Part shown: piece by piece, positions 1-22,810 of the stretch | Layout of the letters: every line of letters starts with the position of its first letter | Numbering within the stretch: position 1 is the stretch's first letter | Origin: a virus | Taxonomy: Duplodnaviria > Heunggongvirae > Uroviricota > Caudoviricetes | Virus record (IMG/VR): IMGVR_UViG_2778261537_000018 | Coordinates: 1 to 24,993 of that record | Direction: 5' to 3' (one strand) | Length of the DNA: 24,993 nt | Notes under the pieces: model-generated | Told to the model about the DNA's origin: nothing | Seen by the model: the letters and a program-made list of their open reading frames with translations, nothing else | The model's database searches: none | Position numbers and translations under genes: made by a program

Positions 1-1719
1 ATGATTTTTAGGGATAGCTTGAGAGTATTACCTTATGGTCGAGTAGATAATGATTTCTTCCAGATAGAAGAAAGACGTTCATGGAATGCAGGGCGATATT
101 ATTGGTCTAATAGAAGGATTTTTGGTTATATTGGAATTACTCAATCCAGTAATAAAGAGCTGAAAGATAAGTCGGGGAGAGAGGGATTCATAAGAAACCA
201 GGCTGCAAGAGAACTGAAAACTATTATATCTAATTTGTTAACTGAACTTGCTGATAGATTTTTTGGTTCACGTTCTGATGACCGTAAAGAGCTTTTAGAA
301 CAAGTTAAGCGTGAAAAAGAGTTAAGAAAATCTGCTCAACAACAAGCTCGAAAATCAACACAAAAAAGTTTTTCAGAAGCTTTGAAGAATCAGACACCAG
401 TTCTTGATGCTTCCTTGGAGGCTGTTAAAAGGCTGAAAACTAAGCTTGATAAAACTGATGGTTCGTTAGATTTAAACTATCTTAAAATTATAGACAGTGA
501 TCTTACAAACTTAGATGCGTTGCGCAGTGAAATTAAAACGCCTATCAAACCTCCAAAACTTGGAATGTATGAAGAGAAATATAGAGACTACAGAGATAAA
601 TTTAATGAGTTCTCTGCGTATATTCTACAAATGAAGTTAGCAATTAATAAACTTGATTCTGAATTAAATAAACTTGAGCCTTCATTGTCAGCGAAAAATC
701 ACCTTGAAAAAAATCAAGGTATTATTAATTCTAAACTAACTAAGTTTAATAACACGATAGAGGAGAAGATACATTCTCTTTTAAAAAAATGGGCCGATGA
801 AATAAAGGTTGATCGAAGTGATTATTATGCTAAAACTATATCAGTTGTTGATTCAATAGATAATGATTCACAAATTGAAAATGTGTTTAATTTGCTCGAT
901 AGTTTATATGTTGAGTCAGTTGATACCCTAATTTTCAAATATCAATCAATAATAAAAGGTCTCGATAGATTATTTGAAGGTATAAACTTAGATTCAGCAT
1001 TCTCATTATCTGAAGAAGAACGCTCATATTTTGAAGAAAAAGCTAAAAGTTTAAACGCGCTTGCACAGTTAGGTATTAGTGTTGAGATAATATCTCATGA
1101 ACTTGAAGAAATGGATTCTATGGTAACCAGAGGACTAAACTCTCTTCCTACTTCTGTAAAAGAACACCCTGGTTTTTCATTGGCGTTAAATGCTCACAGA
1201 TCGCTTACTCAACAAATACGTTTCTTATCACCTTTGAAAATATCAGGTTATCAATCCAGGCAGAGAATAACTGGAAAAAATATCATGGATTATGTCCTGA
1301 AGTTCTTTGGGGAGCGTTTCGAACGGCAACGAATAACTATTGAATTTAGTGAAGAGTTTAAGCAAATCGCAATAACAGATATACCATCAAGGATCTATCC
1401 TGTTTTTACTAATATTATCAACAATGCAATGTATTGGGTCAGTCTGTCAAATAATAGGCTCATAAAGATTGGTTTTGTGAATTCTTTGGTTATCATAGCA
1501 AATTCTGGTCCGGCAATTGATACCGATGATATCCCGCGACTATTTGAACTATTTTATAGCAAAAGAGCAAATGGACATGGGGTAGGTCTGTATCTATGTC
1601 GAGAAAACCTTGCTGTTGCACATCATAAAATATGGTATTCAGAACCTGATGAAGGCGATAACTATTTAATAAAAGATGGCGCTAATTTTGTGATCCAGTT
1701 CAATGGAGTGGAGTTCTAA
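1..1719 (+). CDS. Cytoplasmic histidine-kinase-like protein: coiled-coil N-terminal half, HisKA-like H-box, C-terminal HATPase_c (GHKL) domain
   Basis: ATG at 1, stop TAA 1717-1719. H-box-like IISHELEEM about 100 aa upstream of N-box NIINNAMYW; degenerate G1 box NSGPAID, F-box LFELF, G2 box GHGVGL. N-terminal half is K/E/L-rich (coiled-coil-like) with no obvious hydrophobic TM segment. Both window ends coincide with start codons, so the gene is probably complete. Confidence 0.6.
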   Translation: MIFRDSLRVLPYGRVDNDFFQIEERRSWNAGRYYWSNRRIFGYIGITQSSNKELKDKSGREGFIRNQAARELKTIISNLLTELADRFFGSRSDDRKELLEQVKREKELRKSAQQQARKSTQKSFSEALKNQTPVLDASLEAVKRLKTKLDKTDGSLDLNYLKIIDSDLTNLDALRSEIKTPIKPPKLGMYEEKYRDYRDKFNEFSAYILQMKLAINKLDSELNKLEPSLSAKNHLEKNQGIINSKLTKFNNTIEEKIHSLLKKWADEIKVDRSDYYAKTISVVDSIDNDSQIENVFNLLDSLYVESVDTLIFKYQSIIKGLDRLFEGINLDSAFSLSEEERSYFEEKAKSLNALAQLGISVEIISHELEEMDSMVTRGLNSLPTSVKEHPGFSLALNAHRSLTQQIRFLSPLKISGYQSRQRITGKNIMDYVLKFFGERFERQRITIEFSEEFKQIAITDIPSRIYPVFTNIINNAMYWVSLSNNRLIKIGFVNSLVIIANSGPAIDTDDIPRLFELFYSKRANGHGVGLYLCRENLAVAHHKIWYSEPDEGDNYLIKDGANFVIQFNGVEF

Positions 1720-1720
1720 T

Positions 1721-3469
1721 ATGACAGTGGCAAATTATAATTCTCTTGTCCAGAAAACTTTCTGCGAAAATGCAATTCGTTCCGTTGTCATGATTGATGA
1801 CGATTTTCTGACGTATTCTGAATCAATCAGGGCGTTGAATAACGAAGTTGATTTAGACTACAACAAAATTGACTCATCTAAACGAGCCGCTACTCTTGAG
1901 AGCTTTTTTCAATCTAAAAATATGATTTGTGATGTTGACAATGGTTCTGTTAATTTCGATGTGGATCGGATTAGAAAATCAGATCTTATTATTGTAGATT
2001 ATCATCTTGATAATAATGCACCTGATAAAACACTTAAACTATTACAAGATTTGAAAGACTCCGATCATTTAAATATGATTGTAATATATACTAGAGAGAA
2101 TTTAGAAACGGTTTGGATGCAGATATCATCGACTCTCAAAGGTGCTCTGGATATCAACAGCTTGATCATTGACTACGATAATGAAGATGTCCAAAGTTAT
2201 TGGGAAGACGTTGTATTACCGAACTTAAATGATAATGGTAATAAAGCTCTCACAAGAGATGAAACAATAGCCTATATTAAAGACAGTAAGCCTTGTAGAA
2301 GAATTAAAAGATTAATACATGATGATGCTGTGTTGGAGGATCAAAAGGATAAAAACTTCATTGCAAAAATGATTGCAGAATATGCTGTGTCTAGAAATGC
2401 AATTATTTCTAGCAACACATCTGGCTATGTCATTCGGGGTGATGAAAGCGGAGTAAAATGGATTCAATGTGGTAATATCTTTGTCTCCCTATTTCATAAG
2501 GTTCAAGATGATCATGAAAACGATGGAGATAGGATTTGGCAAACTCTCAATGATTCTCTCATTGAATGGAAACCATCTTATTATCAGTTAATAAAATCTG
2601 AAATTCAGAATGCAATCGAAGCTGAGGCTTTATCTTTTGTAAATCATTTGGCTAACGATCATTACGGTCAAGCTGCGTGGTTAAATGAGATATTAAAATC
2701 AGACTCGCCTGATATTAGATGTAGAAATATTGACTTTGTATTTGGTAATTTATCAGAAGAGCTTTATCAAAGACTTAAAAATAATAATACGCTGGATGAA
2801 TTTATCAAAAGTGTTTTTGATAGCTATTCAAATGAATACGCTAACAGCGGAGTTGCTGCATTGCTCCAATATTGCTCTTCAAAAATGGATCTGCCATCAA
2901 ATAATGATACTTATCACGAAATGTATCATGCTTTAAATATGAATTTGTCTTCAAAGAATTTTGAAGATGGTCATATTTCTACTGGCACTATTTTCTTTGA
3001 TACAGAGTCGAACAAATGGTATTTATGTGTGTCTGCGGCATGTGATTTGGTTCCTACTCAGGGTAACGACCCTCACCATGTAAGATTAAGTCCGCACAGG
3101 CTCATTAAAGTTCTGGAGCTTTTTAACGCCAGTCAGAGTAAAGCATTGCCATTTGCTGAACATTCGAAATATATATATGTAATGCATAAAAATCAAAGAA
3201 AATATCTCTCTATTTTCGAAGGGGATAAAACGCTTCCTGTTGTTGATTATATGGTGGTGTTGAATCATGGAACAACAGTTGATGGCGAAGAAAAAAATAT
3301 TATTTCTGCCGTGTTTTTAAGTAATATGGATGGCAACGTGCAAAATGTTCCTGTCCGACTCAAACTTAAATCTCAACTGAGAACTGGTTATGCAGAAAGA
3401 TATCAGGCTATAGCGTCTCAGTATAGCTCAAGGATTGGTGTGGATTATGTATCAATGATGCTACCATAA
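1721..3469 (+). CDS. Receiver (REC) domain protein with large uncharacterised C-terminal domain
   Basis: ATG 1721 preceded by GGAG at 1709-1712, immediately after the upstream stop (operon-like). N-terminal about 120 aa show REC hallmarks: VVMIDDD (acidic pair), DLIIVDYHLD (phospho-acceptor Asp position), MIVIYT (conserved Thr), then Lys. The remaining about 450 aa have no motif I recognise. ORF track start at 1703 overlaps the upstream gene; 1721 preferred. Confidence 0.6.
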   Translation: MTVANYNSLVQKTFCENAIRSVVMIDDDFLTYSESIRALNNEVDLDYNKIDSSKRAATLESFFQSKNMICDVDNGSVNFDVDRIRKSDLIIVDYHLDNNAPDKTLKLLQDLKDSDHLNMIVIYTRENLETVWMQISSTLKGALDINSLIIDYDNEDVQSYWEDVVLPNLNDNGNKALTRDETIAYIKDSKPCRRIKRLIHDDAVLEDQKDKNFIAKMIAEYAVSRNAIISSNTSGYVIRGDESGVKWIQCGNIFVSLFHKVQDDHENDGDRIWQTLNDSLIEWKPSYYQLIKSEIQNAIEAEALSFVNHLANDHYGQAAWLNEILKSDSPDIRCRNIDFVFGNLSEELYQRLKNNNTLDEFIKSVFDSYSNEYANSGVAALLQYCSSKMDLPSNNDTYHEMYHALNMNLSSKNFEDGHISTGTIFFDTESNKWYLCVSAACDLVPTQGNDPHHVRLSPHRLIKVLELFNASQSKALPFAEHSKYIYVMHKNQRKYLSIFEGDKTLPVVDYMVVLNHGTTVDGEEKNIISAVFLSNMDGNVQNVPVRLKLKSQLRTGYAERYQAIASQYSSRIGVDYVSMMLP

Positions 3470-3540
3470 TTATTATATTTTAGGCGTGGTGATTTTTTTT
3501 CGCCATGCCTATTTTATATTTATCATCACAATGATGTTGT

Positions 3541-3957
3541 TTATTTTTGTTTAAGTCTTCTAAGCTTCATGCATTCTAATGAGAATAATAATAGAGTTGT
3601 GCTGTATATAAAGCCAGAGTTAGTTAATAACTTTAAATTTAATGCTTCAGGATTTTCACTGAGAAAGTGAAAGGCATAAACTAAGTATACAGCTAAAGTA
3701 GCCGTTCCAATTGTTGGTCCAATATCGCCTTGATCATGAGGTTCAAGGTTTACATTGAACTTGAAGATTAGCCATTCAAATCCCCAAGTAAAAAAAACAA
3801 CTAATATCATGGCTGCGAATAATTTCGCGATGTTATCTGCTGATGGATTCATCAGAACAGATTGTTTCTGAAAAAATTCACAAAGTGAGAGTCCGAAAAA
3901 AATAAAAAAAAGTGGTCTGGAACTAAATTTTTCAAAAACTTTGAATAGGGTTTCCAT
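3541..3957 (-). CDS. Small hydrophobic protein (about 4 predicted TM segments), function unknown
   Basis: 138-aa ORF 38 bp downstream of the P4-type int on the same strand; hydrophobic stretches FFIFFGLSL, AAMILVVFFTWGF, ATLAVYLVYAF, FIYSTTLLLF; weak SD (GAAGGT) upstream of ATG at 3957. Confidence 0.4.
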   Translation of the reverse strand: METLFKVFEKFSSRPLFFIFFGLSLCEFFQKQSVLMNPSADNIAKLFAAMILVVFFTWGFEWLIFKFNVNLEPHDQGDIGPTIGTATLAVYLVYAFHFLSENPEALNLKLLTNSGFIYSTTLLLFSLECMKLRRLKQK

Positions 3958-3995
3958 TTTCTTTACCTTCAGGATTATATTAGCTATTCTGATAC

Positions 3996-5225
3996 TTAGG
4001 CTACCAGAGCATTTGATCTTTGAGCTTGAACGTAATCACTCCACCATTGCATCAAACTCTGTCGCTCTATCAGATATTCTGCACGATTGTATGCTGCGAT
4101 AATTTCATCTTTTTTCGAGTGGGCAAGCGCTGCCTCAAGAACTTCAGCTCTGAATTTACCAGACTCCTCTGCCGCTGTTCGTGCAATAGAACGCATACCG
4201 TGAGCTACAAGCTCGCCTCCGAACCCCATTCGGATGATAGCTGCGTTGGCTGTTTGTTCATGCATATGATTAAGAGGCGCTTTTATGCTGGGGAAAACCC
4301 ATTCTCTATGCCCACTTATTGATTTCATTAATTCAAGGATGCGCAAAGCTTCTTTACTCAAAGGAACTTTGTGAAGCTTTTTCATTTTCATGAAATCAGC
4401 AGGAATGTTCCAAATGCTGTTGGTTGTATCAATATCAGACCACCTTGCGCGAACGGCTTCACCCGGACGAACCCATGTCAACAATTGCCATTCAATTAGC
4501 ATACGTGTTTCCAACCGGATTGACGCATTCGTCAAAGATTCCATAAACCTTGGCAATTCGCTTGGGGGAAGGGCAGGCATATTTTGCTTTTTTGGTTTAC
4601 TGAATCTTTGACCAAGGTTGTCAGCCGGGTTGAACTCAATAAGTTCTTCAGTAGCTGCCCACCGGAAGATTTCATTCAGACGTGAAATGATACGGCGTAG
4701 AGTTTCCAATACGCCTCGTTGCTCAATAGGATCAAGGTGTTGTTTTAAGAGCTTAGGTCGGATCTCATTGATAGGGACATTACCCAGACCGGGAAAGACA
4801 TTTCTCTCTAAGCTGCGCCAGATGTCTGCTGCATGGTCTTGTGAGATACCTGATGTCTTTACCTTCTCATCTAACCATTTCCGCGCTACGGCTTGGAGAG
4901 TGTGCTCAGTAGCACTCTTTAATGCCTTCGCCTTATCGTTGTTATGGATTTGGGGATCAACACCATTTGCCAGAAAGGAGAGATATTCATCACGTAAGGC
5001 TCTGGCTCTTGCAAGGGTAAGGTGAGGATATGTCCCAAGGCTCATTTTGGTTCTTTTCTTGCTCACTGGTACTGCATACCTGAAATACCAATTTTTCTTG
5101 CCTCCTTTCGCCAAAGGAGCGATTCGTAGAATCAGACCATCACCGTCAAACAAGTTGATTTCTTTATCGGCTGGCTTGGTGCTTTTGATTTCAGTGTCAG
5201 TGAGCTTCTTAGCGATTTTTGCCAT
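3996..5225 (-). CDS. int: P4-type (CP4-57 IntA-like) tyrosine integrase
   Basis: N-terminus MAKIAKKLTDTEIKSTKP... with the arm-binding (DUF4102-like) signature of P4-family integrases; C-terminal catalytic region HGMRSIARTAAEE...AHS...YNRAEY. Start taken at the internal ATG (5223-5225) rather than the ORF-track start 5267. Sits next to the ssrA-derived 45-bp repeat, as intA does next to ssrA in E. coli K-12. Confidence 0.85.
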   Translation of the reverse strand: MAKIAKKLTDTEIKSTKPADKEINLFDGDGLILRIAPLAKGGKKNWYFRYAVPVSKKRTKMSLGTYPHLTLARARALRDEYLSFLANGVDPQIHNNDKAKALKSATEHTLQAVARKWLDEKVKTSGISQDHAADIWRSLERNVFPGLGNVPINEIRPKLLKQHLDPIEQRGVLETLRRIISRLNEIFRWAATEELIEFNPADNLGQRFSKPKKQNMPALPPSELPRFMESLTNASIRLETRMLIEWQLLTWVRPGEAVRARWSDIDTTNSIWNIPADFMKMKKLHKVPLSKEALRILELMKSISGHREWVFPSIKAPLNHMHEQTANAAIIRMGFGGELVAHGMRSIARTAAEESGKFRAEVLEAALAHSKKDEIIAAYNRAEYLIERQSLMQWWSDYVQAQRSNALVA

Positions 5226-5390
5226 TTTGGGACCCTCGGTTTTTGGACCCTTCTTAGTGGGTCCCATTCAGGGTGCCATAACTCGTAGTTCTCAGCAATT
5301 CTCACTGGACGACAATAGACGTAAAAAAGCCCGCAGAGCTTGTGCTGTGTGGGCTTAGTAGACTTCATTGAACTTCAAACAACTAAAAAG

Positions 5391-5435
5391 TGGTGGAGCT
5401 GGCGGGAGTTGAACCCGCGTCCGAAATTCCTACAT
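5391..5435. repeat. 45-bp direct repeat identical to the 3' end of ssrA (att site between tandem elements)
   Basis: tggtggagctggcgggagttgaacccgcgtccgaaattcctacat is identical at 5391-5435 and 23934-23978 (the 3' end of the intact tmRNA gene); sequences diverge immediately beyond on both sides. Confidence 0.85.
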
Positions 5436-5527
5436 ACTATTATTAATGGTTGAGATGCAATAATTTATCAATATTATCATTGATTTAGTGTTTTGGCGTA
5501 TTAGCAAGTGTTATGCATTTTTACTCT

Positions 5528-5550
5528 TCTGTCGCCATTTTGCCGCCACT
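5528..5550. repeat. 23-bp direct repeat, left copy (tctgtcgccattttgccgccact)
   Basis: Exact 23-mer also present at 23865-23887, same orientation; each copy lies just inside the 45-bp ssrA repeats. Confidence 0.8.
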
Positions 5551-5643
5551 TATACTAATGCAATAGAATATCTACCTACGATAATTTATACTGGAAGTGA
5601 TGAAAAAATAAAAAAATATCAATACTTTTCGATGTGGGGATAT

Positions 5644-7386
5644 ATGAAAACACAGAAATTCGTAAGTGAACTTTTTTTAGAAAATGGGCAGTTTATTCTA
5701 GTTGGCTTAACTGGAAGAACTGGTTCTGGTTGTACTACAGCAGCAACTATTTTAGAAAGTAATGAGACAGTATTTCCCGATGTGGATAAATTAACTGATT
5801 TTTATAATGGTTTAGATTTACAGCGTTATAAGATAGTTAAGGATTTCACTGAGAATCATTGGGAGGCATTTTACTCAATCAAGGTTAGTGACTTGCTATC
5901 AGTTTATTTGTTAGCAATGTCACATACTGAACTTTCACACTTCATCACGTCGTCAACTAAAGATAGCATTGATGAAGATAAATTAAACAAGATACTTAAT
6001 GAAGGAGCATTTTCAAAAACACAACTTAGAAAAATAAGGACGGATATATTAAAAGCACTTATTGATCATAGTCAAGAATTAGATCTCGATAATCTAGATG
6101 TATCTAACATAAGAAAAACATTGCATTTGGTTAGGTTTTTCACTAATAACTTCAAAAAAGAACTTAATGAGATAAATACAGGTCTTTATGTATCAACTTA
6201 TCAGGCCGCTGGAAAATCTGTTAGACGGCTTGGTGAAGTAAAAACAAACTATGAAACAGAAGAATTTGATCCAAAATCGGTATTTCATTTGCCTGAAACT
6301 ATTAATAGGGTCATTAAGCTAATTAGAAAAAGCCAAGGTGGTAAGGCATTAGTAGTTATTGATGCTATACGTAATCCATATGAAGCTAAATTCTTTAAAG
6401 ATAGATATGCTGCATTCCATTTGGTATCAATTAATGCTCCTGATGAGCATAGGAAAAAATATTTACAGAAGCTACACAAGTTTTCATCTGAGCGCATTAA
6501 ACACATTGATGATATTGAATCAGGAAAAGGAGATAAAGACAATCAATATAAACATTTAACGAACCCTAATGTAACGAAATGCATAGAAATTTCGGATATA
6601 CATCTTTATAATCCTAAAAATGAGTTTGATAACAATAACATACTTAAAGCACAACTTGCATGGTATATCGCTCTAATGAAGCATCCTGGATTGATCACTC
6701 CTACAGCGATGGAGCGAGTTATGCAGGTCGCATATACTGTTAAATTAAACTCTGGATGTATATCGAGGCAGGTCGGTGCCGTTGTTACAGATAATGATAA
6801 TTCAATTAAATCAGTTGGTTGGAATGATGTAGCTAAAGGGCAGATACCATGTTCAATGAGATCACTCGATGGGTTGATCAATGATTTTGATTCGAAAGTA
6901 TATAGCTCATATGAGCGAAATGATGCTCTTTTTAGAAAGAAAGCTAAAAGTAATTTAATAAAGTTTAGAGCGATTGAATCAAGCTCTGAAATTTTTAAAG
7001 GACGTAATTTGTCATATTGCTTCAAGGATATTCATAATAGTCTTAATGATGATAAAAAAGGGAATCAGGTCCATACCAGAGCTTTACATGCTGAAGAAAA
7101 TGCCTTTTTACAATTATCTAAATATGGTGGCGTTGGTGTCCAAGGTGGTAAGTTGTATACTACAGCAAGTCCTTGTGAACTTTGTGCAAAAAAAGCATAT
7201 CAATTAGAGGTCGCTGAAATAATTTTCATTGATCCTTATCCGGGTATTGCACAAGATCATATTATTAATATAGGTAATAATCCACCTAAATTAATTCAAT
7301 TTAGAGGGGCAATTGGTAAATCATATCATCGATTATATGAACAAATTATTCCTATGAAAGATGAGTTGGATTATTTATCAATGTAA
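5644..7386 (+). CDS. P-loop kinase-like domain fused to cytidine/deoxycytidylate deaminase domain (AvcD/DcdV-like anti-phage dCTP deaminase architecture)
   Basis: N-terminal Walker-A-like GLTGRTGSGCTT; C-terminal zinc-deaminase signature HAEENAF...SPCELCAKK (H-x-E and PC-x-x-C). Start placed at ATG 5644 (GGGGA 3-7 nt upstream); in-frame alternatives at 5632 and 5488. AT-rich relative to phage backbone. Stop 7384-7386 is 9 bp from the convergent int stop. Confidence 0.65.
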   Translation: MKTQKFVSELFLENGQFILVGLTGRTGSGCTTAATILESNETVFPDVDKLTDFYNGLDLQRYKIVKDFTENHWEAFYSIKVSDLLSVYLLAMSHTELSHFITSSTKDSIDEDKLNKILNEGAFSKTQLRKIRTDILKALIDHSQELDLDNLDVSNIRKTLHLVRFFTNNFKKELNEINTGLYVSTYQAAGKSVRRLGEVKTNYETEEFDPKSVFHLPETINRVIKLIRKSQGGKALVVIDAIRNPYEAKFFKDRYAAFHLVSINAPDEHRKKYLQKLHKFSSERIKHIDDIESGKGDKDNQYKHLTNPNVTKCIEISDIHLYNPKNEFDNNNILKAQLAWYIALMKHPGLITPTAMERVMQVAYTVKLNSGCISRQVGAVVTDNDNSIKSVGWNDVAKGQIPCSMRSLDGLINDFDSKVYSSYERNDALFRKKAKSNLIKFRAIESSSEIFKGRNLSYCFKDIHNSLNDDKKGNQVHTRALHAEENAFLQLSKYGGVGVQGGKLYTTASPCELCAKKAYQLEVAEIIFIDPYPGIAQDHIINIGNNPPKLIQFRGAIGKSYHRLYEQIIPMKDELDYLSM

Positions 7387-7395
7387 GTCTGTACA

Positions 7396-8409
7396 TTATA
7401 AAAAGTTGAGTGGGTTTTTATAAACTGCGTCTTCAAGATGATCTGGTGAAAAGTGTGAATATACCATGGTCATCTTGATATCAGAATGACCCAAAATATC
7501 TCTCAAAACAAGTATGTTTCCGCCGTTCATCATAAAATGACTGGCGAAAGTATGGCGTAGCACATGAGTGCATTGTCCCGCTGGTAAGTCTATATTGGCC
7601 CGCTTCACTGCTCGTTCAAAAGCTTTTCTGCATGGCGTGAACAGCTTCCCCCTGTTTTTGGGTAGTTCGTCGTATAGCTCCTGAGATATCGGTACAGTTC
7701 GGTTTTTCTTGCCTTTGGTTTTGGTATAGGTGATCCGATATTTTGATAACTGATGGCCTTGAAGGTTTTCGGCTTCACTCCACCGCGCGCCGGTAGCTAG
7801 GCATACCTTTGCGATCATCAATAGGCTAGGGCTTTGAGAATCAGCGCAGGCATCAAGCAGGCGTTTAATTTCGTCCAAGGCTAAGAATGCCAATTCACCC
7901 TCTGCGATTTTGAATGTCGGTAGCCCGGCGAGTGGGTTAGGCGCTGACCAGTGGCCCAACTTCTTCAGGGTGCCAAAAACGGATGATAAGTTACGCTGTT
8001 CAAGGTTTACCGTGCGTGGTTTTACTGGCGACATTAGCGCGCCTTCTTCGTTACGTACCTCTCCTTTCAACCGTGCTTCACGATATTTCGTAAAGTCACC
8101 GGCGGTTAATTCAGAGGCGACGGGATCGCCTAGGCCATTGCAGATAATATTCAGTTTCGCCATCAGGCGCTTGGGGTCTGCGAGCGTCTGGCCGTAAAGG
8201 GAGTGCCACTGCTCAATCAATTCTGACAAACGCCGCCGATCTTCCTTTTCACCCAGCCACGGCTTTTTGTTCACTTGATCCATGGTGAAGTTTTCGAATG
8301 CTACAGCCTCGCCCTTTGTCGCAAATTGCTTGCGCACGCGCTTGCCGTCACGCCCGTTCGGGTAACACTCGCACAACCATTTTCCGTTCGGCTGTTTTCT
8401 GATGGTCAT
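7396..8409 (-). CDS. int: P2/186-type phage tyrosine integrase
   Basis: 337 aa; N-terminal ...NGKRVRKQFATKGEAVAFE and C-terminal HVLRHTFASHFMMNGGNILVLRDILGHSDIKMTMVYSHF (catalytic His/Arg/Tyr region). Start ATG 1 nt after the cI stop on the same strand (translational coupling). Confidence 0.85.
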   Translation of the reverse strand: MTIRKQPNGKWLCECYPNGRDGKRVRKQFATKGEAVAFENFTMDQVNKKPWLGEKEDRRRLSELIEQWHSLYGQTLADPKRLMAKLNIICNGLGDPVASELTAGDFTKYREARLKGEVRNEEGALMSPVKPRTVNLEQRNLSSVFGTLKKLGHWSAPNPLAGLPTFKIAEGELAFLALDEIKRLLDACADSQSPSLLMIAKVCLATGARWSEAENLQGHQLSKYRITYTKTKGKKNRTVPISQELYDELPKNRGKLFTPCRKAFERAVKRANIDLPAGQCTHVLRHTFASHFMMNGGNILVLRDILGHSDIKMTMVYSHFSPDHLEDAVYKNPLNFL

Positions 8410-8410
8410 A

Positions 8411-9043
8411 TCAAAGGCTCTTAATGATTTTCAATGCGCGGCCAACAACCTCGATATCATCCAGGCTGCACTCAAACGAAGAATCATCTTGATGTACAAC
8501 TAATCTGTTTCCGGGAAGGCGAGTTAGCTTAACAATGCTTTTTATCCCGTCGATATCGACCAACCACATCCCATTCACTGGTAGTGTCTGGTTACGGTCA
8601 ATTAAATATGAATCGCCATTGGTATTTACGAGAAGTAGCTCGCTTGAGTCAGGGGGAAGCAGGCTGCTATCAATGATGGCCTTCCCGGCTTCAATCAACG
8701 AACCTCCGATAAGGCTAGCCTTATCGATCTCTGGCGATACAAGCTCAGAAAGTGGTTTTACTTTGCTAGAGTTCACGAAATTGATACTTTTTCTATCATC
8801 AATTTTTGTTCCTGGTTCGCCTTGTCCTGTAGTTAGCCAGAGTAATGAAACGCCTGTTTCAAGAGCGCATTGGATCACCCATTCTGCAGGGAAGCTATCC
8901 CTTAAGTATCTGTTTGCCATAGTGCTTTTAGATGCGCCTAAGTGATCGCATAGCTGCTGTCGGGACTTGAAATCATAGGCAGCCATCAACCTATGGATAG
9001 CCTCTCTACCCCCTGTATTCTCGCCAGCCTTCACCTGTATCAT
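8411..9043 (-). CDS. CI-like phage repressor (186 cI-like, HTH N-terminal domain)
   Basis: 210 aa immediately upstream of int on the same strand; HTH-like segment QQLCDHLGASKSTMANRYLRDSFPAEWVIQCALETGVSLLWLTTGQG; position and orientation match the 186 cI-int operon. Confidence 0.7.
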   Translation of the reverse strand: MIQVKAGENTGGREAIHRLMAAYDFKSRQQLCDHLGASKSTMANRYLRDSFPAEWVIQCALETGVSLLWLTTGQGEPGTKIDDRKSINFVNSSKVKPLSELVSPEIDKASLIGGSLIEAGKAIIDSSLLPPDSSELLLVNTNGDSYLIDRNQTLPVNGMWLVDIDGIKSIVKLTRLPGNRLVVHQDDSSFECSLDDIEVVGRALKIIKSL

Positions 9044-9055
9044 TTTTTAATCCTA

Positions 9056-9107
9056 TTGACGTATCAAATATTGGATCGTAGTATCTCGATTGTTCAAATA
9101 TTGGATC
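9056..9107 (+). promoter_or_regulatory. Lytic promoter (pR-like) with flanking 14-bp direct-repeat operator candidates
   Basis: TTGACG (9056-9061), 17-nt spacer, TAGTAT (9079-9084); direct repeat tcaaatattggatc at 9064-9077 and 9094-9107. Lies in the divergent intergenic region between cI and the apl-like gene. Confidence 0.4.
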
Positions 9108-9162
9108 ACATAAAACAAGATAAAACGACATAAACCAAACCTTAACTGAGAGATACTGCACT

Positions 9163-9405
9163 ATGAGCACTGATATTTCAATTCGTGTACCAAAAGAGAT
9201 GGCTACGCCTGCAGAGTTCGCTGAATGGGAAGGTATCTCCCGTGGCTCTGTTTACCAGAAAATTCACCATGGCCAGCTCGCCAAGTACATGGTCAAGAAA
9301 GAAAAAAACAAAGGTCGCGTAAGCCTTCGTTACCTGATGTACAAAACCGACCAGGTTCGTGAATCCCTCGGTCATTCCAACTTCCGCGTCATTGTTGGTA
9401 AGTAA
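9163..9405 (+). CDS. Apl/Cox-like small excisionase/regulator
   Basis: 80-aa ORF, first gene of the rightward operon facing cI, as apl is in 186; basic, possible HTH (WEGISRGSVYQKIHHGQL). Assignment is positional plus weak motif. Confidence 0.5.
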   Translation: MSTDISIRVPKEMATPAEFAEWEGISRGSVYQKIHHGQLAKYMVKKEKNKGRVSLRYLMYKTDQVRESLGHSNFRVIVGK

Positions 9406-9437
9406 GTTCAATTATGGGAACTTTCTAAGGGGGCAGC

Positions 9438-9947
9438 ATGTTTGATTACAAGATTTCCAAACATCCGAATTTTGATGAAGCCTGTAGAGCTTTTGCACTA
9501 CGTCACAACATGACGAAGCTGGCAGAACGTGCAGGAATGAATGTTCAGACACTGCGAAACAAACTCAACCCAGATCAACCGCATCAGCTCACAGCGCCAG
9601 AAATCTGGTTGCTCACCGATCTGACTGAAGATTCAACGCTGGTAGATGGCTTTTTGGCACAGATTCACTGCCTGCCATGCGTACCAATTAATGAGGTGGC
9701 AAAAGAGAAACTGCCACATTACGTCATGAGTGCAACCGCAGAGATCGGGCGTGTTGCTGCAGGTGCGGTATCTGGTGATGTAAAAACTAGTGCCGGTCGT
9801 CGTGATGCTATCAGCAGCATTAACTCTGTAACACGACTGATGGCGCTGGCGGCTGTTTCATTGCAGGCCCGTTTACAGGCTAATCCTGCGATGGTGAGTG
9901 CAGTTGATACCGTGACTGGCCTCGGTGCTTCATTCGGTTTGCTGTGA
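9438..9947 (+). CDS. Phage CII-like regulatory protein (186 CII / CP76 family)
   Basis: 169-aa ORF after the apl-like gene; length and position match 186 cII as I recall it; N-terminal HTH-like region. No database check possible. Confidence 0.55.
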   Translation: MFDYKISKHPNFDEACRAFALRHNMTKLAERAGMNVQTLRNKLNPDQPHQLTAPEIWLLTDLTEDSTLVDGFLAQIHCLPCVPINEVAKEKLPHYVMSATAEIGRVAAGAVSGDVKTSAGRRDAISSINSVTRLMALAAVSLQARLQANPAMVSAVDTVTGLGASFGLL

Positions 9948-9954
9948 GGTGCTT

Positions 9955-10251
9955 ATGCTGACGAAAGAACCATCATTTGCATCGCTGCTGGTAAAACAAA
10001 GCCCGGCAATGCACTACGGTCACGGCTGGATCATGGGTGAGGATGGTAAACGCTGGCATCCATGTCATTCACAAGATGAATTGCTGTCTGAATTGACCAC
10101 GAGGAAACGGAGAAAGTCAAAATGTATGCAGCGGAAAGTGAAGTGGTTTATCAGTTTCGTTACAGAGGGGAGAGTTATTCAGTACCTGAAGATGATTTGC
10201 TCTGTTGTTATCCGTCGTTGTCGGGCGATGGCAGTTACTTTTTCACGCTAA
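9955..10251 (+). CDS. Fil-like small phage protein (C-terminal extent uncertain)
   Basis: ATG 9955 with GAGGTG 4 nt upstream, immediately after the cII stop; N-terminus ...HYGHGWIMGEDGKRWHPC resembles enterobacterial prophage Fil proteins as I recall them. Overlaps the next ORF by about 130 nt in another frame. Confidence 0.35.
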   Translation: MLTKEPSFASLLVKQSPAMHYGHGWIMGEDGKRWHPCHSQDELLSELTTRKRRKSKCMQRKVKWFISFVTEGRVIQYLKMICSVVIRRCRAMAVTFSR

Positions 10252-10346
10252 GGGATGGGACGTTTTTACGGGGAGAGCAGGTTAAAGAGACGATACGAAA
10301 AAATGTATCTCCTCTTGAACGTTACCGTAAGAACAAAGAACGATAG
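10122..10346 (+). CDS. Hypothetical small phage protein
   Basis: 74-aa ORF with GGAG about 10 nt upstream; overlaps the 3' part of the Fil-like ORF in a different frame, so one of the two is mis-delimited or there is a frameshift. Confidence 0.3.
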   Translation: MYAAESEVVYQFRYRGESYSVPEDDLLCCYPSLSGDGSYFFTLRDGTFLRGEQVKETIRKNVSPLERYRKNKER

Positions 10347-10368
10347 TTGCGTTTTGGGGATATGAATT

Positions 10369-10710
10369 ATGGCAATTAATGGCGCTGCGGCGACTGTTCC
10401 ATTAAGCCCCGGTGAACGCCTGAATGGACTTAATCACATTGCGGAGTTAAGGGCGAAAGTATTTGGCCTGAATATTGAGTCAGAGCTTGAGCGGTTTATT
10501 AAAGATATGCGTGATCCACGGGATATCAATAACGAACAAAATAAACGAGCACTGGCTGCCATATTCTTTATGGCAAAAATTCCAGCTGAACGTCATAGCA
10601 TCAGCATTAATGAGCTGACCACTGACGAAAAGCGGGAGTTGATTAAAGCAATGAATCATTTTCGTGCAGTGGTGAGCTTATTTCCCAGACGGCTAACCAT
10701 GCCGAATTAA
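10369..10710 (+). CDS. Hypothetical phage early-region protein
   Basis: 113-aa ORF with GGGGA SD 8 nt upstream; same strand and region as P2 orf80-83 / 186 CP genes. Confidence 0.45.
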   Translation: MAINGAAATVPLSPGERLNGLNHIAELRAKVFGLNIESELERFIKDMRDPRDINNEQNKRALAAIFFMAKIPAERHSISINELTTDEKRELIKAMNHFRAVVSLFPRRLTMPN

Positions 10711-10777
10711 GCAACTAATGAAATTAATGGCGTAAACCCGCCGGGCATCCCTTTATCTAAATTCAGGAGAATTGATT

Positions 10778-11011
10778 ATGCGTAATATTGAAACCCTCAC
10801 GACTAAAACCGGACCGGATGATGCAGGGCTTAATATTTTACTGACAGAGGCTCGTCTGGAAGAACGCCGGGCAAGGGCTGAAGCAATGGCAGCTCGCCTT
10901 GATAGCCTGGCGTGTCATATCACATCCCGCCAGCTAAACCACGTCGAAGCGGCAGAACTGCTGCGTGTGACTGCTGAAGCAATCCAGAACGAAGCGCAGG
11001 AGATCCACTAA
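10778..11011 (+). CDS. Hypothetical phage early-region protein
   Basis: ATG 10778 preceded by AGGAGA (10765-10770); 77 aa; stop overlaps the start of the TraR-like gene (TAATG). Confidence 0.45.
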   Translation: MRNIETLTTKTGPDDAGLNILLTEARLEERRARAEAMAARLDSLACHITSRQLNHVEAAELLRVTAEAIQNEAQEIH

Positions 11012-11238
11012 TGGCAGATGCAATGGATCTCGTACAGCAGCGCGTTGAAGAAGAACGCCAGCGCTATATCCGTGCTGCCCGTGCCAAAACACCGGGCGTG
11101 TCTCGTGTGCTTTGTATTGAATGTGAAGCGCCAATTCCGCCAGCACGACGCCGCGCCATTCCTGGAGTGCAGCTTTGCATTACCTGTCAGGAAATCGCAG
11201 AGCTGAAAGGCAAACATTACAACGGAGGTGTTGTATGA
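11011..11238 (+). CDS. TraR/DksA-family C4 zinc-finger protein
   Basis: 75 aa with CIECEAPIPPARRRAIPGVQLCITCQ (C-x2-C...C-x2-C), typical of phage TraR-like proteins; start overlaps the upstream stop and its own stop overlaps the dam start. Confidence 0.65.
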   Translation: MADAMDLVQQRVEEERQRYIRAARAKTPGVSRVLCIECEAPIPPARRRAIPGVQLCITCQEIAELKGKHYNGGVV

Positions 11239-12092
11239 GCACCATCCTGAAATGGGCGGGAAATAAAACCGCCATTATGTCCGAACTGAAAAAACATCTT
11301 CCTGCTGGCCCGCGACTGGTTGAACCTTTCGCGGGTTCCTGTGCTGTGATGATGGAGACGGATTACCCCAGCTATCTTGTTGCGGATATTAATCCTGATT
11401 TAATCAACCTCTATAAAAAGATTGTCGCTGATTGCGAAGCGTTTATATCTCGTGCCAGAGCTTTATTTGAGGAAGCAAACAGGGATGTGGCTTATTACAA
11501 CATAAGGCAGGAGTTTAATTACTCCACTGAAATTACTGATTTCATGAAAGCGGTATATTTCCTGTATCTCAATCGTCATGGTTACCGTGGGTTATGTCGC
11601 TATAACAAGAGCGGGCATTTCAACATTCCGTACGGTAATTATAAAAATCCGTATTTCCCTGAAAAAGAAATTCGCGCATTTGCAGAGAAAGCCCAGCGGG
11701 CAACGTTTATCTGCGCAAGCTTTGATGAAACGCTGGCGATGCTGCAGGTGGGGGATGTGGTGTATTGCGATCCGCCGTATGACGGTACGTTTTCCGGCTA
11801 TCACACTGATGGTTTCACTGAAGATGACCAGTATCACCTGGCATCCGTTCTTGAACATCGGTCATCAGAAGGACATCCGGTCATTGTTTCTAACAGTGAC
11901 ACATCCCTGATCCGTTCGCTGTATCGCAATTTTACTCACCACTACATCAAGGCAAAACGCAGCATCGGTGTGGCAGCTGGTGAGAGTAAATCTGCAACAG
12001 AAATCATCGCTGTTTCCGGGCCGCGCTGCTGGGTGGGATTTGATCCTTCGCGTGGCGTGGATAGTTCAGCCGTGTACGGAGTACGTGCATGA
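11235..12092 (+). CDS. dam: DNA adenine methyltransferase (Dam-like, orphan N6-A MTase)
   Basis: Motif I-like EPFAGSCAV and catalytic motif DPPY ([12 protein letters not shown]); N-terminus [11 protein letters not shown]. Start at ATG 11235 (ORF-track start 11175 is an upstream extension). No adjacent restriction endonuclease gene. Confidence 0.8.
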
Positions 12093-14509
12093 GTCATGCC
12101 GATATGAACAACTGCTGCGGCTTTAACGAGGCTGCCGCAGCGTTCTCATGGAACAGCCCGAAAAAGGCCATTAACCCTTATCTGGACCCGGCGGAAGTTG
12201 CGCCGGTTTCTGCGCTTTCAAACCTGATCACTCTGTACGCTGCCGATAACGAGCAGGAACAACTGCGCCGCGAGGCACTGAGTGATCAGGTCTGGGAGCG
12301 TTATTTTTTTAATGAATCACGTGATCCTGTCCAGCGCGAAATGGAGCAGGATAAGCTCATTAGCCGGGCAAAGCTGGCGCATGAGCAGCAGCGTTTTAAT
12401 CCGGATATGGTCATTCTGGCGGACGTCAACGCCCAGCCTTCCCATATCAGCAAGCCGCTGATGCAACGTATTGAATACTTTAGCAGCCTGGGCAGGCCAA
12501 AGGCTTATTCCCGCTATTTACGTGAGACGATTAAGCCATGTCTGGAACGACTGGAGCATGTACGCGACAGCCAGCTATCTGCATCTTTTCGTTTTATGGC
12601 AAGCCATGAAGGGCTGGACGGCCTGCTTATCCTGCCTGAAATGAGTCAGGATCAGGTGAAGCGCCTGTCTACCCTTGTCGCTGCGCATATGAGCATGTGC
12701 CTTGATGCCGCTTGTGGTGATTTGTATGCCACCGATGACGTTAAGCCAGAAGAAATCCGCAAAACATGGGAAAAGGTGGCAGCGGAAACCCTGCGTCTGG
12801 ATGTTATTCCGCCTGCGTTTGAGCAACTCCGTCGGAAAAGAAACCGCCGTAAACCCGTGCCCTATGAACTCATTCCGGGTTCGCTGGCGCGTATGTTGTG
12901 TGCCGACTGGTGGTATCGGAAATTATGGAAGATGCGTTGCGAATGGCGGGAAGAGCAGTTGCGTGCTGTCTGCCTGGTCAGCAAAAAAGCATCTCCCTAT
13001 GTCAGCTATGAAGCCGTGATGCATAAACGTGAGCAGCGCCGCAAGTCACTGGAGTTTTTCCGTTCTCATGAACTGGTGAACGAAGAGGGCGACACGCTGG
13101 ATATGGAAGACGTGGTAAACGCCAGCAGCAGCAACCCGGCGCACCGCCGCAATGAGATGATGGCCTGTGTTAAAGGTCTGGAGCTTATCGCGGAAATGCG
13201 TGGTGATTGCGCCGTTTTCTACACCATTACCTGTCCGTCACGTTTCCATTCCACGCTCAATAACGGCAGACCAAACCCAACCTGGACAAATGCGACGGTA
13301 AGACAAAGCAGCGATTATCTGGTCGGCATGTTTGCTGCATTTCGTAAGGCGATGCACAAAGCCGGGTTGCGCTGGTATGGCGTGCGGGTGGCTGAGCCGC
13401 ATCATGACGGTACGGTTCACTGGCACCTGTTGTGTTTCATGCGCAAAAAAGACCGCCGTGCCATTACTGCATTGTTGCGTAAGTTTGCCATCCGTGAAGA
13501 CCGCGAGGAACTGGGTAATAACACTGGTCCACGCTTTAAATCTGAGCTGATAAACCCGCGCAAAGGAACACCGACAAGCTACATCGCGAAATACATTAGT
13601 AAGAACATTGACGGGCGTGGTCTGGCTGGCGAGATCAGCAAGGAAACGGGTAAATCCCTGCGTGATAACGCTGAATACGTTAATGCCTGGGCGTCTCTGC
13701 ATCGTGTTCAGCAATTCCGCTTCTTTGGTATTCCGGGGCGTCAGGCTTACCGTGAACTGCGATTGCTGGCTGGTCAGGCGGCAAGGCAACAGGGCGACAA
13801 AAAAGCAGGTGCGCCGGTACTGGATAACCCGCGCCTTGATGCCATCCTGGCTGCTGCTGATGCTGGTTGTTTTGCCACTTACATCATGAAGCAGGGTGGC
13901 GTACTGGTTCCCCGCAAATATCACCTCATCAGAACTGCTTATGAAATTAACGAAGAGCCGACCGCCTATGGCGATCACGGCATTCGTATTTATGGCATCT
14001 GGTCACCCATTGCAGAGGGCAAGATCTGCACTCATGCAGTGAAGTGGAAAATGGTCCGTAAAGCCGTTGACGTTCAGGAGGCGGTAGCCGACCAGGGCGC
14101 TTGCGCCCCTTGGACTCGGACTCGTGGCAATAACTGTCCCCTTGCTGAAAATTTGAACCAACAAGGGAAAGACAAATCAGCTGATGGGGATACCAGAACG
14201 GATATCACCCGCATGGATGACAAGGAGTTGCACGATTACCTGCACAGTATGAGCAAAAAAGAACGCCGGGAACTGGCAGCAAGGTTACACCTGGTTAAAC
14301 CGAAACGGTGTAAAGACTACAAACAGCGAATTACAGACCATCAGCGACAGCAGCTCGTGTATGAGCTGAAGTCCAGAGGGTTTGATGGTAGCGAGAAAGA
14401 GGTCGATTTACTCCTTCGCGGCGGCAGTATTCCGTCAGGAGCAGGCCTGCGTATCTTCTATCGGAACCAGCGTTTGCAGGAAGATGATAAGTGGCGAAAC
14501 CTGTATTAA
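12089..14509 (+). CDS. Phage replication initiation endonuclease (P2 gpA / 186 RepA family, rolling-circle type)
   Basis: 806 aa; start overlaps the dam stop (ATGA); contains the conserved [11 protein letters not shown] region I associate with P2 A-type replication proteins; position matches P2/186 synteny. Confidence 0.8.
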
Positions 14510-14601
14510 TTACGATGGTTAACCATTCGTGCTCTTAATAATACCAGGCATATCAGGCTGATAAACGTAAAAAAACGTTTTACATCAGTAAGATTATTAT
14601 A

Positions 14602-14621
14602 TACTGTAAATATAAACAGTG
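14602..14621 (+). promoter_or_regulatory. LexA (SOS) box upstream of the small ORF / DinI-like operon
   Basis: TACTGTAAATATAAACAGTG fits CTGT-N8-ACAG; lies about 40 bp upstream of a strong SD (AGGAGG 14653-14658) and ATG 14663. Confidence 0.5.
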
Positions 14622-14662
14622 GTTGTACATACAGTATTGCGTGTGGTGTCATAGGAGGAAAG

Positions 14663-14851
14663 ATGCAGGACTATTTTTTGGAGTCTTTGAAGCTCCAGCG
14701 CATTGATTTTTTTCTTAAGCTTGTAGCGGCCAGTGAGTGTAGTGATGAAGAGAAGGGACTGGCTCTGCAGTGGGTTTCTGAATTGACTGATGAACTCATG
14801 GCAAAAATCAGAAGCCACGAATACAACCGCTCAATGGATGTCATCAGCTGA
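14663..14851 (+). CDS. Small SOS-controlled phage protein (possible N-terminal part of a Tum-like antirepressor)
   Basis: 62-aa ORF with strong SD AGGAGG 5 nt upstream and LexA box in its promoter region; followed 10 nt later by the DinI-like ORF in another frame. Confidence 0.45.
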   Translation: MQDYFLESLKLQRIDFFLKLVAASECSDEEKGLALQWVSELTDELMAKIRSHEYNRSMDVIS

Positions 14852-14861
14852 GGTGACTTTT

Positions 14862-15095
14862 ATGCGCATTGAAATAATGATCGATAAAGAGCAGAAGATT
14901 AGCCAGTCTACCCTGGACGCCCTTGAATCCGAGCTTTACCGTAATCTGCGCCCCCTGTATCCCAAAACGGTAATTCGTATCCGCAAAGGTAGCTCTAACG
15001 GTGTGGAACTGACCGGACTGCAACTGGACGAAGAAAGGAAGCAAGTGATGAAAATTATGCAGAAGGTGTGGGAAGACGACAGCTGGCTGCATTAA
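14862..15095 (+). CDS. DinI-family protein (phage Tum/DinI-like)
   Basis: 77 aa starting MRIEIMIDKEQKISQSTLDALESELYRNLRPLYP...KVWEDDSWL, closely resembling E. coli DinI (MRIEVTIAK...AGAIDAL...E.WE..D.W); SD GAGGTG upstream. Confidence 0.7.
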   Translation: MRIEIMIDKEQKISQSTLDALESELYRNLRPLYPKTVIRIRKGSSNGVELTGLQLDEERKQVMKIMQKVWEDDSWLH

Positions 15096-15363
15096 GAAAC
15101 GTTGCTGGCGTCTGAACTTGTTTCTGGCGTCAGCAAGGTTGAACAACGAGCCCTTGCGAGGCGTTAGCTCTGTAGTGCATGTCTATGCCGCATGAGATCG
15201 CATGATCGTTTGAGGATCGTTTTTGCTAAGGCCCGCCAGAACTGGTGGGCTTTTGCGTAGATCATGCAGGTGCATGAAAACCACTACATAAAGCGGGCAG
15301 GCGTGGCGGGGATACGAGCGCGCGCTAACTCATAAATCCTAGATTATTAGTGGATTTATCTCA

Positions 15364-17187: not shown

Positions 17188-17190
17188 ACT

Positions 17191-17217
17191 AAAGGGAGGT
17201 TGCCTCCCTTTTTTTTA
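17191..17217. terminator. Rho-independent terminator between the AIPR-like gene and the portal gene (bidirectional candidate)
   Basis: aaAGGGAGGttgCCTCCCTttttttttt: 7-bp GC-rich stem (17193-17199 / 17203-17209), 3-nt loop, T-run 17209-17216; lies between convergent stops at 17187 and 17219. Confidence 0.6.
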
Positions 17218-17218
17218 A

Positions 17219-20010: not shown

Positions 20011-20152
20011 GGCACAAACCTACAGCCTTGAATGAAGGCTTTCCCCGCCTGCGGTTTGTGTGGTTGTCGGTACAAATACCGCGCATTGTTTCACTGCCCC
20101 CATCACCGCAACCATAAGGCTCCAGTAAGTTTTTTCTAACGGAGCACGGCTC

Positions 20153-20986: not shown

Positions 20987-21002
20987 TGGAGCACAAAACC
21001 TG

Positions 21003-22061: not shown

Positions 22062-22064
22062 TCC

Positions 22065-22715: not shown

Positions 22716-22810
22716 CAGAACGTGCCCCCGCGCACGGGCGGCACGGGGTGGCGAAAGGCACTGCCACATCAAAACCCCGTCCACCGCCCTCTATTTCAGG
22801 AGAAAGCAGC

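Follow-up and report, generated by a model that had tools for sequence, protein, structure and literature searches.

The 24,993-nt stretch of viral-record DNA analysed here (the window) is best read as two mobile elements acquired in succession at the ssrA (tmRNA) hotspot of an Escherichia coli-type chromosome, followed by a deletion within the second of them, a reading to which we assign a probability of about 0.9. We infer that the first arrival was an island remnant, designated element B, which lies directly downstream of ssrA and carries a P4-family integrase and three cargo genes. A temperate phage of the Fels-2/SopEPhi group, that is, a P2-family phage with a 186-type switch and integrase, would then have integrated at the same gene, its Int recombining the phage attP (a 45-bp core equal to the ssrA 3' end, with 186-type arm sites) with the ssrA 3' end. 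Integration would leave the 45 bp at both ends of the prophage, at 5391–5435 beside element B and at 23934–23978, where it completes ssrA. Three cargo genes would have come with the phage, specifying a dCTP deaminase between attL and int, an AIPR/Abi-like protein between A and Q, and a BRCT-domain protein between ogr and attR. A deletion of 17.2 kb, which would be later still, has removed the genes from L through D, with the loss of tails and lysis.

The ssrA gene and the prophage boundary

An intact ssrA gene (23934–24296, minus strand) was detected by ARAGORN, which gives a tag peptide of ANDENYALAA, and by Rfam (RF00023, 295.8 bits, model positions 1–374). tmRNA was the sole family that the Rfam scan detected in the window. 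The adjoining chromosomal flank contains smpB (24511–24993, minus strand), a gene annotated under that name in relatives. The flank has 99.7% identity to E. coli K-12, which identifies the host as E. coli or something very closely related to it.

The sequence TGGTGGAGCTGGCGGGAGTTGAACCCGCGTCCGAAATTCCTACAT, 45 bp in length, occurs at both 5391–5435 and 23934–23978 with zero mismatches, which confirms the exact duplication of the ssrA 3' end reported in a preliminary description of this DNA. Identity stops at the 46th base, which is A for the left copy and C for the right. Because an exact 45-mer is present twice within 25 kb, chance is excluded. The right copy forms the last 45 nt of the intact ssrA gene and is the attR core. 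The left copy (minus strand) is a displaced ssrA 3' fragment and is the attL core of the prophage; its left flank matches strain 503025, and its right flank is the phage P' arm. An intrinsic terminator (23898–23925, minus strand), consisting of a 12-pair stem followed by a T run, lies within the phage P arm and is kept in strains 600468 and C21 and in SopEPhi. Given its position inside the P arm, it is the phage that provides the regenerated ssrA with a terminator. The displaced ssrA fragment has a terminator-like hairpin downstream of it (5327–5341, minus strand), the sequence of which, in strain 503025, lies directly downstream of the intact ssrA gene.

When positions 5391–23933 were removed in silico, the remaining 6450 nt matched the ssrA locus of strain 503025 with 99.94% identity (4 mismatches, 0 gaps), and an exact span of 1600 nt bridged the excision junction. 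The 503025 locus has no prophage, and consists, in order, of an IS3, genes for an ATPase, a receiver-domain protein, a hypothetical protein and an integrase, and then ssrA and smpB. Excision should not alter ssrA, given the identity of the two copies of the 45 bp. Strain LF4-1 has a complete prophage at ssrA and lacks element B, its attL adjoining a K-12-type chromosomal flank before ypjA, and strains 600468 and C21 carry the same element B together with complete prophages, i.e. they are stacked. The comparison of ssrA loci proposed in the preliminary description therefore recovers phage-free, single-element and tandem states among the relatives. Rather than being contiguous in all of them, the DNA flanking the repeat differs in its state at ssrA from one relative to another. 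Two earlier suggestions agree with these results: the repeat at 5391–5435 is an island boundary, excision at which recreates the 503025 locus, and two integrase-bearing elements are stacked at ssrA, as seen from the excised (503025), phage-only (LF4-1) and stacked (600468, C21) states. The gene layout is also as first described, with the P2/186-type integrase gene distal to ssrA, the deaminase gene between it and the repeat, and the P4-family integrase gene reading away from the left copy.

In a set of 5426 complete E. coli genomes, the 5' region of the element B integrase gene lies beside an ssrA 3' copy in 1291, the integrase gene abuts an intact ssrA in 965, and the phage P arm abuts ssrA in 230. 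The stacked state is estimated to occur in about 200–330 of the 5426 genomes, a range that represents differences between coverage-thresholded BLAST counts rather than a per-genome intersection. The stacked arrangement at ssrA is real but ordinary, and is already well described.

The prophage, its attachment sites and its cargo

Matches to the Pfam, NCBIfam and PHROG databases identify the DNA between the repeats as a P2-family prophage of the Fels-2/SopEPhi type (186-like). The gene for a full-length 186-type integrase (7396–8409, minus strand; Pfam Int_N and Phage_integrase, PHROG 1 and 11531) is 1014 nt, the same length as in relatives. Beside it are genes for a 186-type CI repressor (8411–9043, minus strand; Phage_CI_repr, 6.2e-31, and Phage_CI_C, 5.9e-29) and an Apl/Cox-like excisionase-repressor (9163–9405, plus strand; PHROG 6912, excisionase, 4.1e-39, and PHROG 575, Cox-like). 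The early operon (9438–14509, plus strand) specifies CII, Fil, DUF5347, DUF2732, TraR/DksA zinc-finger and Dam methylase proteins and the replication endonuclease A (12089–14509, plus strand), with Pfam matches to Phage_CP76, Phage_186_Fil, DUF5347, DUF2732, zf-dskA_traR, MethyltransfD12 and, for A, Phage_GPA. It is followed by a small hypothetical gene and a DinI-like gene (14663–15095, plus strand), which were assigned from a Pfam DinI match (1.2e-22) and the annotation of relatives. DNA matches to the early region were found in Salmonella SopEPhi, SEN8, several Klebsiella phages and one Yersinia phage.

The head and packaging genes code for the portal Q (17219–18247, minus strand; PHROG 68, 2.5e-175) and the large terminase P (18244–20010, minus strand; PHROG 3746, 6.1e-161), which are divergent from those for the capsid scaffold O, major capsid protein N and small terminase M (20153–22715, plus strand; PHROG 73, 70 and 74), the E-values of the module spanning 1.4e-88 to 2.5e-175. 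An ogr/Delta-like late transcription activator gene (23083–23301, plus strand) was recognized from PHROG 603, the annotation of relatives and NCBIfam NF007241 (1.9e-32), where its score of 111.6 is just under the cutoff of 116. The prophage thus has the P2-type head module, the 186-type lysogeny module with A, and the ssrA-derived att core of the group; of the complete late region, 17.2 kb is missing when compared to C21. An ORF on the minus strand at 22627–23289, considered as a possible ssrA-adjacent gene, is spurious, as it has no family matches and overlaps the D'-ogr region of relatives. A search of the window with the P2 cos sequence (up to 3 mismatches allowed) gave no match.

The missing late genes are accounted for by a deletion scar (22811–23014, plus strand) that was revealed by alignment to C21. 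At 22955/22956, the first 145 nt of the head-completion gene L are joined in frame to the last 59 nt of the late-control gene D, forming an L'-D' fusion. Window position 22955 corresponds to 28163 of the C21 locus, within L, and position 22956 corresponds to 45402; about 17.2 kb from L to D is gone, including lysis, baseplate, tail-fibre, sheath, tube and tape-measure functions. Microhomology is not evident at the junction. When a query that bridges the L-D junction was compared with the 5426 complete E. coli genomes, none covered 80% or more of it, and the junction was not found among GTDB representative genomes. The deletion is private to this DNA, and is the sole private feature of the locus. 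Family matches extending from int to M, along with the deletion, bear out the earlier description of a P2/186-type remnant between the repeat copies, and the prophage is a defective remnant of a member of the Fels-2/SopEPhi group. Both att sites, int, apl, cI, A and the head and packaging genes have been kept, with gene lengths as in complete relatives; the losses are confined to the tail, lysis and late-control D functions. There is a slim chance that the remnant may function as an excisable, replicating defence cassette of dCTP deaminase, AIPR and BRCT genes, dependent on a helper and mobilized by a co-infecting phage of the Fels-2/P2 type; if so, it would represent a satellite-like element that arose directly from its own helper lineage.

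An exact 23-nt repeat, TCTGTCGCCATTTTGCCGCCACT, is found at 5528–5550 and again at 23865–23887 (plus strand). The left copy lies at the end of the phage P' arm of attL (5436–5550, plus strand), which finishes in two predicted Int arm sites, the repeats TGTCGCCATTT and TGCCGCCACTT at 5530–5550 (TGCCGCCACTT being 5540–5550), and the right copy would provide the corresponding arm-site repeats of the P arm. For integrases of the 186 type, the arm-binding sites are direct repeats with the consensus tgccGCCActt, and they flank the core on either side (Nilsson et al. 2011, PMC3448106). The motif T[GC][CT]CGCCA-N3-TGCCGCCA occurs at +139 from the core start in the window, in four E. coli relatives and in SopEPhi, and at -67 from the core start on the P-arm side in the window, the E. 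coli relatives and SopEPhi. It was found at no other position in the window, relative or SopEPhi loci, and is absent from phage-free loci. Conserved blocks are common to the five attL arms compared, and every related attL has degenerate copies of the 23-nt repeat at a matching distance from the core, regardless of the gene that follows. Based on the published 186-type consensus and these conserved offsets, we infer that the 23-nt repeat, with its TGTCGCCATTTTGCCGCCACT repeats, represents the Int arm sites of the P and P' arms. A different origin for the repeat, as the scar of a third element or of a cassette exchange, was rejected, as it has the same offset whatever the cargo, is present in SopEPhi and fits the consensus. 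Both att sites appear to be intact. The separation of int from the left repeat had earlier been taken as a sign that the attL-int junction was remodelled, and this no longer holds: the P' arm is intact, its arm sites are at the SopEPhi offset, the deaminase gene lies beyond the arm, and an identical deaminase gene is present in the complete LF4-1 prophage, which has no second element adjoining it.

The gene occupying the att-int slot (5644–7386, plus strand) is predicted to code for an anti-phage dCTP deaminase (PADLOC dCTPase, 2.5e-140; Pfam dCMP_cyt_deam_1, PF00383, 2.1e-14), and its product, with a zinc-dependent cytidine/dCMP deaminase domain, matches over its full length the curated family model for such proteins, the NCBIfam equivalog NF041025 (score 415.5, cutoff 400). 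In the 1-kb intervals that cover the gene, the GC content is 31.9–33.1%. Over 5391–7500, an interval that includes this gene, the complete LF4-1 prophage has a sequence of 100% identity at the corresponding position. The slot is variable, being occupied by a gene for a 222-aa hypothetical protein in C21, by orfY in SopEPhi, and by diverged dCTP deaminase alleles in 600468 and other genomes. A passage on P2-like phages in PMC13586616 (2026) reports an att-int defence hotspot that holds 3% of P2 defence systems, and the deaminase gene lies in this reported slot. It lies between the P' arm and the 3' end of int, and is read as phage cargo in that described slot. Comparisons between prophages point to its being packaged with the phage. 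No close homologue was detected in deposited phage genomes (tblastn), and among the matches listed there were distant dCMP-deaminase relatives with 27% identity or less.

The hotspot between A and Q (tin/old) carries a gene (15364–17187, plus strand) for a putative abortive-infection-like protein of the AIPR family (Pfam AIPR, 7.3e-35; PADLOC AbiU, 7.4e-25; PHROG 1841, Abi-alpha-like, 8e-173). This region has 35–38% GC, the slot is filled by other genes in relatives, and it is the same A-Q hotspot that was described in P2-like phages by Rousset et al. 2022 (PMC9122126). The slot between ogr and attR carries a gene for a candidate BRCT-domain protein (23328–23810, minus strand), with a weak match to Pfam BRCT (0.0011), a match to PHROG 2561 and a weak match to the PADLOC candidate PDC-S48 (1.8e-07). 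A different gene is found there in 600468, the slot is empty in SopEPhi, and it is not named in the passage on P2 hotspots in PMC13586616. Judging from their family and PADLOC matches, the products of these cargo genes would act in defence.

Element B and the order of arrival

The window starts inside element B (1–5390), and the distal, IS3 end of the element is extrapolated from relatives that are 99.9% identical. In these, element B is 5.3 kb, with an IS3 after four genes and then a truncated chromosomal ygaQ'. The first gene (1–1719, plus strand) specifies a GHKL ATPase/histidine-kinase-like protein (Pfam HATPase_c, 1.8e-11; HEF_HK, 1.3e-05), has no PADLOC match, and is 99.9% identical in 600468, C21 and 503025, where it is annotated as coding for an ATP-binding protein. 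The second (1721–3469, plus strand, the start coordinate being taken from the RefSeq annotation of relatives) specifies a Response_reg_2 receiver-domain protein (Pfam PF19192, 3.5e-31). HEF_HK and Response_reg_2 genes are genetically linked and are enriched near restriction-modification systems (PMC8011034). The third gene (3541–3957, minus strand) codes for a hypothetical protein of 138 aa that belongs to PHROG 6556, of unknown function, and has no match in Pfam, PADLOC or NCBIfam. Taken together, the three cargo genes gave no significant PADLOC match, the sole one recorded being to a trans-membrane model (E = 0.0029). A role for the element B cargo in defence is plausible, and in this respect the earlier view that both elements carry defence-like genes is in keeping with the family and PADLOC matches.

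The fourth gene of element B codes for a tyrosine integrase (3996–5225, minus strand, with the ORF readable to 5267) with Arm-DNA-bind_3, Phage_int_M and Phage_integrase domains. These domains and NCBIfam NF007246 (score 440.4, cutoff 434) place it in the P4 family, which upholds one part of an earlier proposal that the left element is a P4-type satellite. The rest of that proposal finds no support here. [quoted passage not shown] In strain 027_SK3, a related integrase gene at ssrA heads an island of regulators and DUF6387, SIR2 and ankyrin genes, and no P4 genes are annotated in it. From these matches, the identification of the left element as a satellite is not supported. Nor is there support for the helper and satellite families at ssrA forming a functional pair, since the supposed helper is also without the tail and lysis genes that a satellite would exploit; they represent two integrase families using one popular site.

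Strains with prophages that vary in sequence (about 80–97% identity) and in cargo share element B at 99.9% identity. No further copy of the ssrA 3' end was found in the 15–20 kb to the left of element B in relatives (allowing up to 4 mismatches per 20 nt). The early region of the prophage (5391–15166), including the identical deaminase gene, is 99.5% identical to that of LF4-1, which occupies a site free of element B. Because of its 99.9% identity under different prophages, the lack of a second att and the IS3 end in relatives, element B is regarded as a vertically inherited, immobile stump that was resident before the Fels-2-type phages, and there was probably more than one integration, in different lineages.

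Three other explanations bear on this order of events and on the status of the repeat itself. In the first, the phage entered an empty ssrA and element B arrived later, inserting into the displaced 45-bp fragment at attL. This is very improbable, even though a P4-family integrase could in principle use such a fragment as attB and phage-only configurations exist (LF4-1). Element B abuts an intact ssrA in the 965 genomes mentioned above, one of which is identical over the whole 508-nt junction query, and its near invariance under differing prophages fits a resident element with repeated phage arrival. In addition, element B of relatives lacks a second copy of att and is cut short by an IS3, which indicates that it is not currently mobile. 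A second alternative, in which the repeat stems from an artefact of assembly or duplication, or from chance resemblance, instead of being left by integration, has a probability close to nil. It is a general possibility with nothing further in support, and it must be set against a repeat that is exact over 45 bp and ends precisely at the tmRNA 3' end, a SopEPhi genome bounded by the same core, and the same junctions in many independent complete genomes.

The remaining explanation combines a helper prophage and a P4-type satellite as a meaningful pair with remodelling of the attL-int region by insertion of the deaminase gene after integration. Much of the evidence against it has been given already: the P4 genes psu, delta, sid, alpA and alpha are missing from element B, where no regulatory RNA family was found either, the element is a 5.3-kb stump ending at IS3 in relatives, and the prophage has no tail and lysis genes of the kind a satellite needs. 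In its favour, one integrase is of the P2/186 family and the other of the P4 family, int adjoins att in many integrated elements, and the low GC content of the deaminase region (31.9–33.1%, compared to 40–50% for the integrase region) would be consistent with an insertion. However, the core is separated from the deaminase gene by the P' arm, in which the arm sites have the offset typical of the family. A complete prophage at an ssrA free of element B has the identical deaminase gene in that position, and in SopEPhi, which was sequenced as a complete phage genome, a gene likewise separates att from int. We consider this explanation highly unlikely.

The succession of element B, phage and deletion makes this locus a clean worked example of a tmRNA gene gathering mobile elements one after another. 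It also illustrates that a gene between att and int can be real phage cargo rather than a scar, and that a single P2-family prophage can carry predicted defence genes in three separate slots. For annotation, two cautions apply: the family of an integrase is by itself insufficient to call a P4 satellite, and the arm sites should be located before a gap between att and int is read as remodelling.

Comparison with known systems

The principles that underlie this locus are all known already, namely ssrA as a shared hotspot, the integration of Fels-2 and SopEPhi, the 186-type arm sites, and the P2 hotspots including att-int. The tmRNA gene was reportedly described as a heavily used integration target by Williams in 2003, under the title 'Traffic at the tmRNA gene', a paper cited in PMC10121019. 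Genes for tmRNA and tRNA carry tandem island arrays, with an intact tDNA, islands that each have an integrase, and displaced fragments (Islander, PMC4383910), and of these features the window has an intact tDNA, one displaced fragment and two integrases. No qualitative difference from the published arrays is apparent; the outer member here, element B, appears to be a truncated stump without a distal fragment, judging from relatives, in which no copy of its own ssrA fragment is seen (the window ends inside the element). The tmRNA locus is also E. coli defence hotspot #9, where prophages, elements with P4-type integrases and defence genes are found (PMC10121019).

CP4-57 of E. coli K-12 resembles element B in being an island with a P4-family integrase just downstream of ssrA, reading away from it and carrying defence genes. 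The two are not the same element, as the element B integrase has 48% aa identity to IntA of CP4-57 and there is no shared gene content. Beyond ssrA-smpB, the matches between the window and the K-12 locus consist of a weak match at the 3' end of ssrA and in the spacer downstream of it, together with a 75-bp phage-arm relic. The distal repeat of CP4-57 is imperfect and, as a consequence, excision deletes T357 of ssrA (PMC10107115), whereas the 45-bp copies of the window are identical, and ssrA would survive excision unchanged.

Among E. coli relatives, the prophages of LF4-1, 600468 and C21 (RefSeq) are full length, unlike that of the window. The early region is about 95% identical to those of 600468 and C21 (99.5% to LF4-1), and the late region is about 96–97% identical. 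In 600468 and C21, as in the window, the left neighbour of the prophage is the same element B. All three differ from the window in the genes found between A and Q, and the att-int slot also contains other genes, except in LF4-1.

For SopEPhi, which is classified in Felsduovirus, and for Fels-2, ssrA is a known site of integration (Pelludat et al. 2003, cited in PMC3448106). The window differs from SopEPhi in its E. coli-type host and in sharing about 80% DNA identity over the early region, and from both phages in being without 17.2 kb of late genes. Its cargo consists of the dCTP deaminase, AIPR and BRCT genes instead of the orfY and sopE of SopEPhi. In other respects the correspondence is close. 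The same 45-bp core is present at both ends of the SopEPhi record (3–47 and 35111–35155), the same arm-site motif is found at the same offsets, a gene lies between att and int, and SopEPhi and Fels-2 share with the window the gene order att, cargo, int, cI, apl, cII, fil, dam, A, hotspot, Q, P, O, N, M ... D, ogr, att.

Cargo genes near the attachment sites

Like the other cargo slots, the one between ogr and attR varies in content, and here it holds the BRCT-domain gene (23328–23810, minus strand). This gene was found in 164 genomes; for comparison, the phage P arm lies at ssrA in 230. In strain 600468, the same slot carries a different gene, of 237 aa, while in SopEPhi no gene is annotated there. 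The sole defence match of the BRCT-domain gene is a weak one, to the PADLOC candidate PDC-S48, and the slot is not among the P2 hotspots named in the passage of PMC13586616 that deals with them.

At the opposite end, a sigma-70-like match (5540–5569, plus strand; TTGCCG and TAGAAT separated by an 18-nt spacer) precedes the start of the deaminase gene by about 75 nt, such matches being no more numerous in the region than in shuffled sequence. Since it overlaps the left arm-site repeat, Int binding at this predicted site and transcription of the deaminase gene could interfere with each other. Among the matches listed for the deaminase, the closest named phage is Burkholderia phage phiE094, a P2-like phage, which specifies a distant homologue of the deaminase domain region (positions 32378–33223, 25% identity); ranked above it are two unannotated faecal contigs labeled 'Bacteriophage sp.'.

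A non-coding segment in the A-Q hotspot

Within the A-Q cargo hotspot there is a 153-nt non-coding segment (15174–15326) that is 90–92% conserved in three related loci, with differing cargo on both sides, and that in a fourth related locus runs on uninterrupted from the conserved early region. The segment terminates in GGCGTGGCGGGGA, which resembles the P2/186 cohesive-end sequence, and because of this resemblance it may be cos. A search using the P2 cos sequence, allowing up to 3 mismatches, gave no match, and the cos reading is therefore offered as a lead only. Elsewhere in the prophage, replication gene A contains, close to its 5' end, an imperfect inverted repeat (12213–12300), with 24-nt arms that are 83% complementary and a 40-nt spacer.

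The genes of element B

Adjoining the ssrA integrase of element B are genes for an HEF_HK-type ATPase, a Response_reg_2 protein and a 138-aa protein of unknown function (1–3957), and the trio is 99.9% conserved across several E. coli strains. The three genes are a candidate defence or conflict system, classed as paraMORC-related on the basis of PMC8011034. PADLOC returned no significant match for them, the only hit being to a trans-membrane model (E = 0.0029). In E. coli TW10598, the left neighbour of the related prophage carries, behind a related P4-family integrase, genes for a recombinase and two ParB-like proteins.

Deletion, rearrangement and a relic in K-12

The deletion in the prophage created an in-frame L'-D' fusion ORF of 67 codons (22811–23014, plus strand; 48 aa of L' and 19 aa of D'), and no microhomology is evident at the junction. 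The related prophage of TW10598 is likewise deleted and ends beside rplS, not ssrA (41729–42201 of locus L005); the prophage locus is rearranged in this strain. In E. coli K-12 (NC_000913.3), a 75-bp stretch (28971–29044 of locus L006) matches window positions 23872–23946 with 89% identity, and consists of a relic of the Fels-2-type P arm (arm site and terminator) fused to the final 13 nt of ssrA. It lies between pinH' and ypjB, adjoining the invertase pseudogene pinH, about 27 kb downstream of ssrA and past CP4-57 and ypjA, and has the appearance of a scar left at the ssrA locus by an ancient P2-like prophage.
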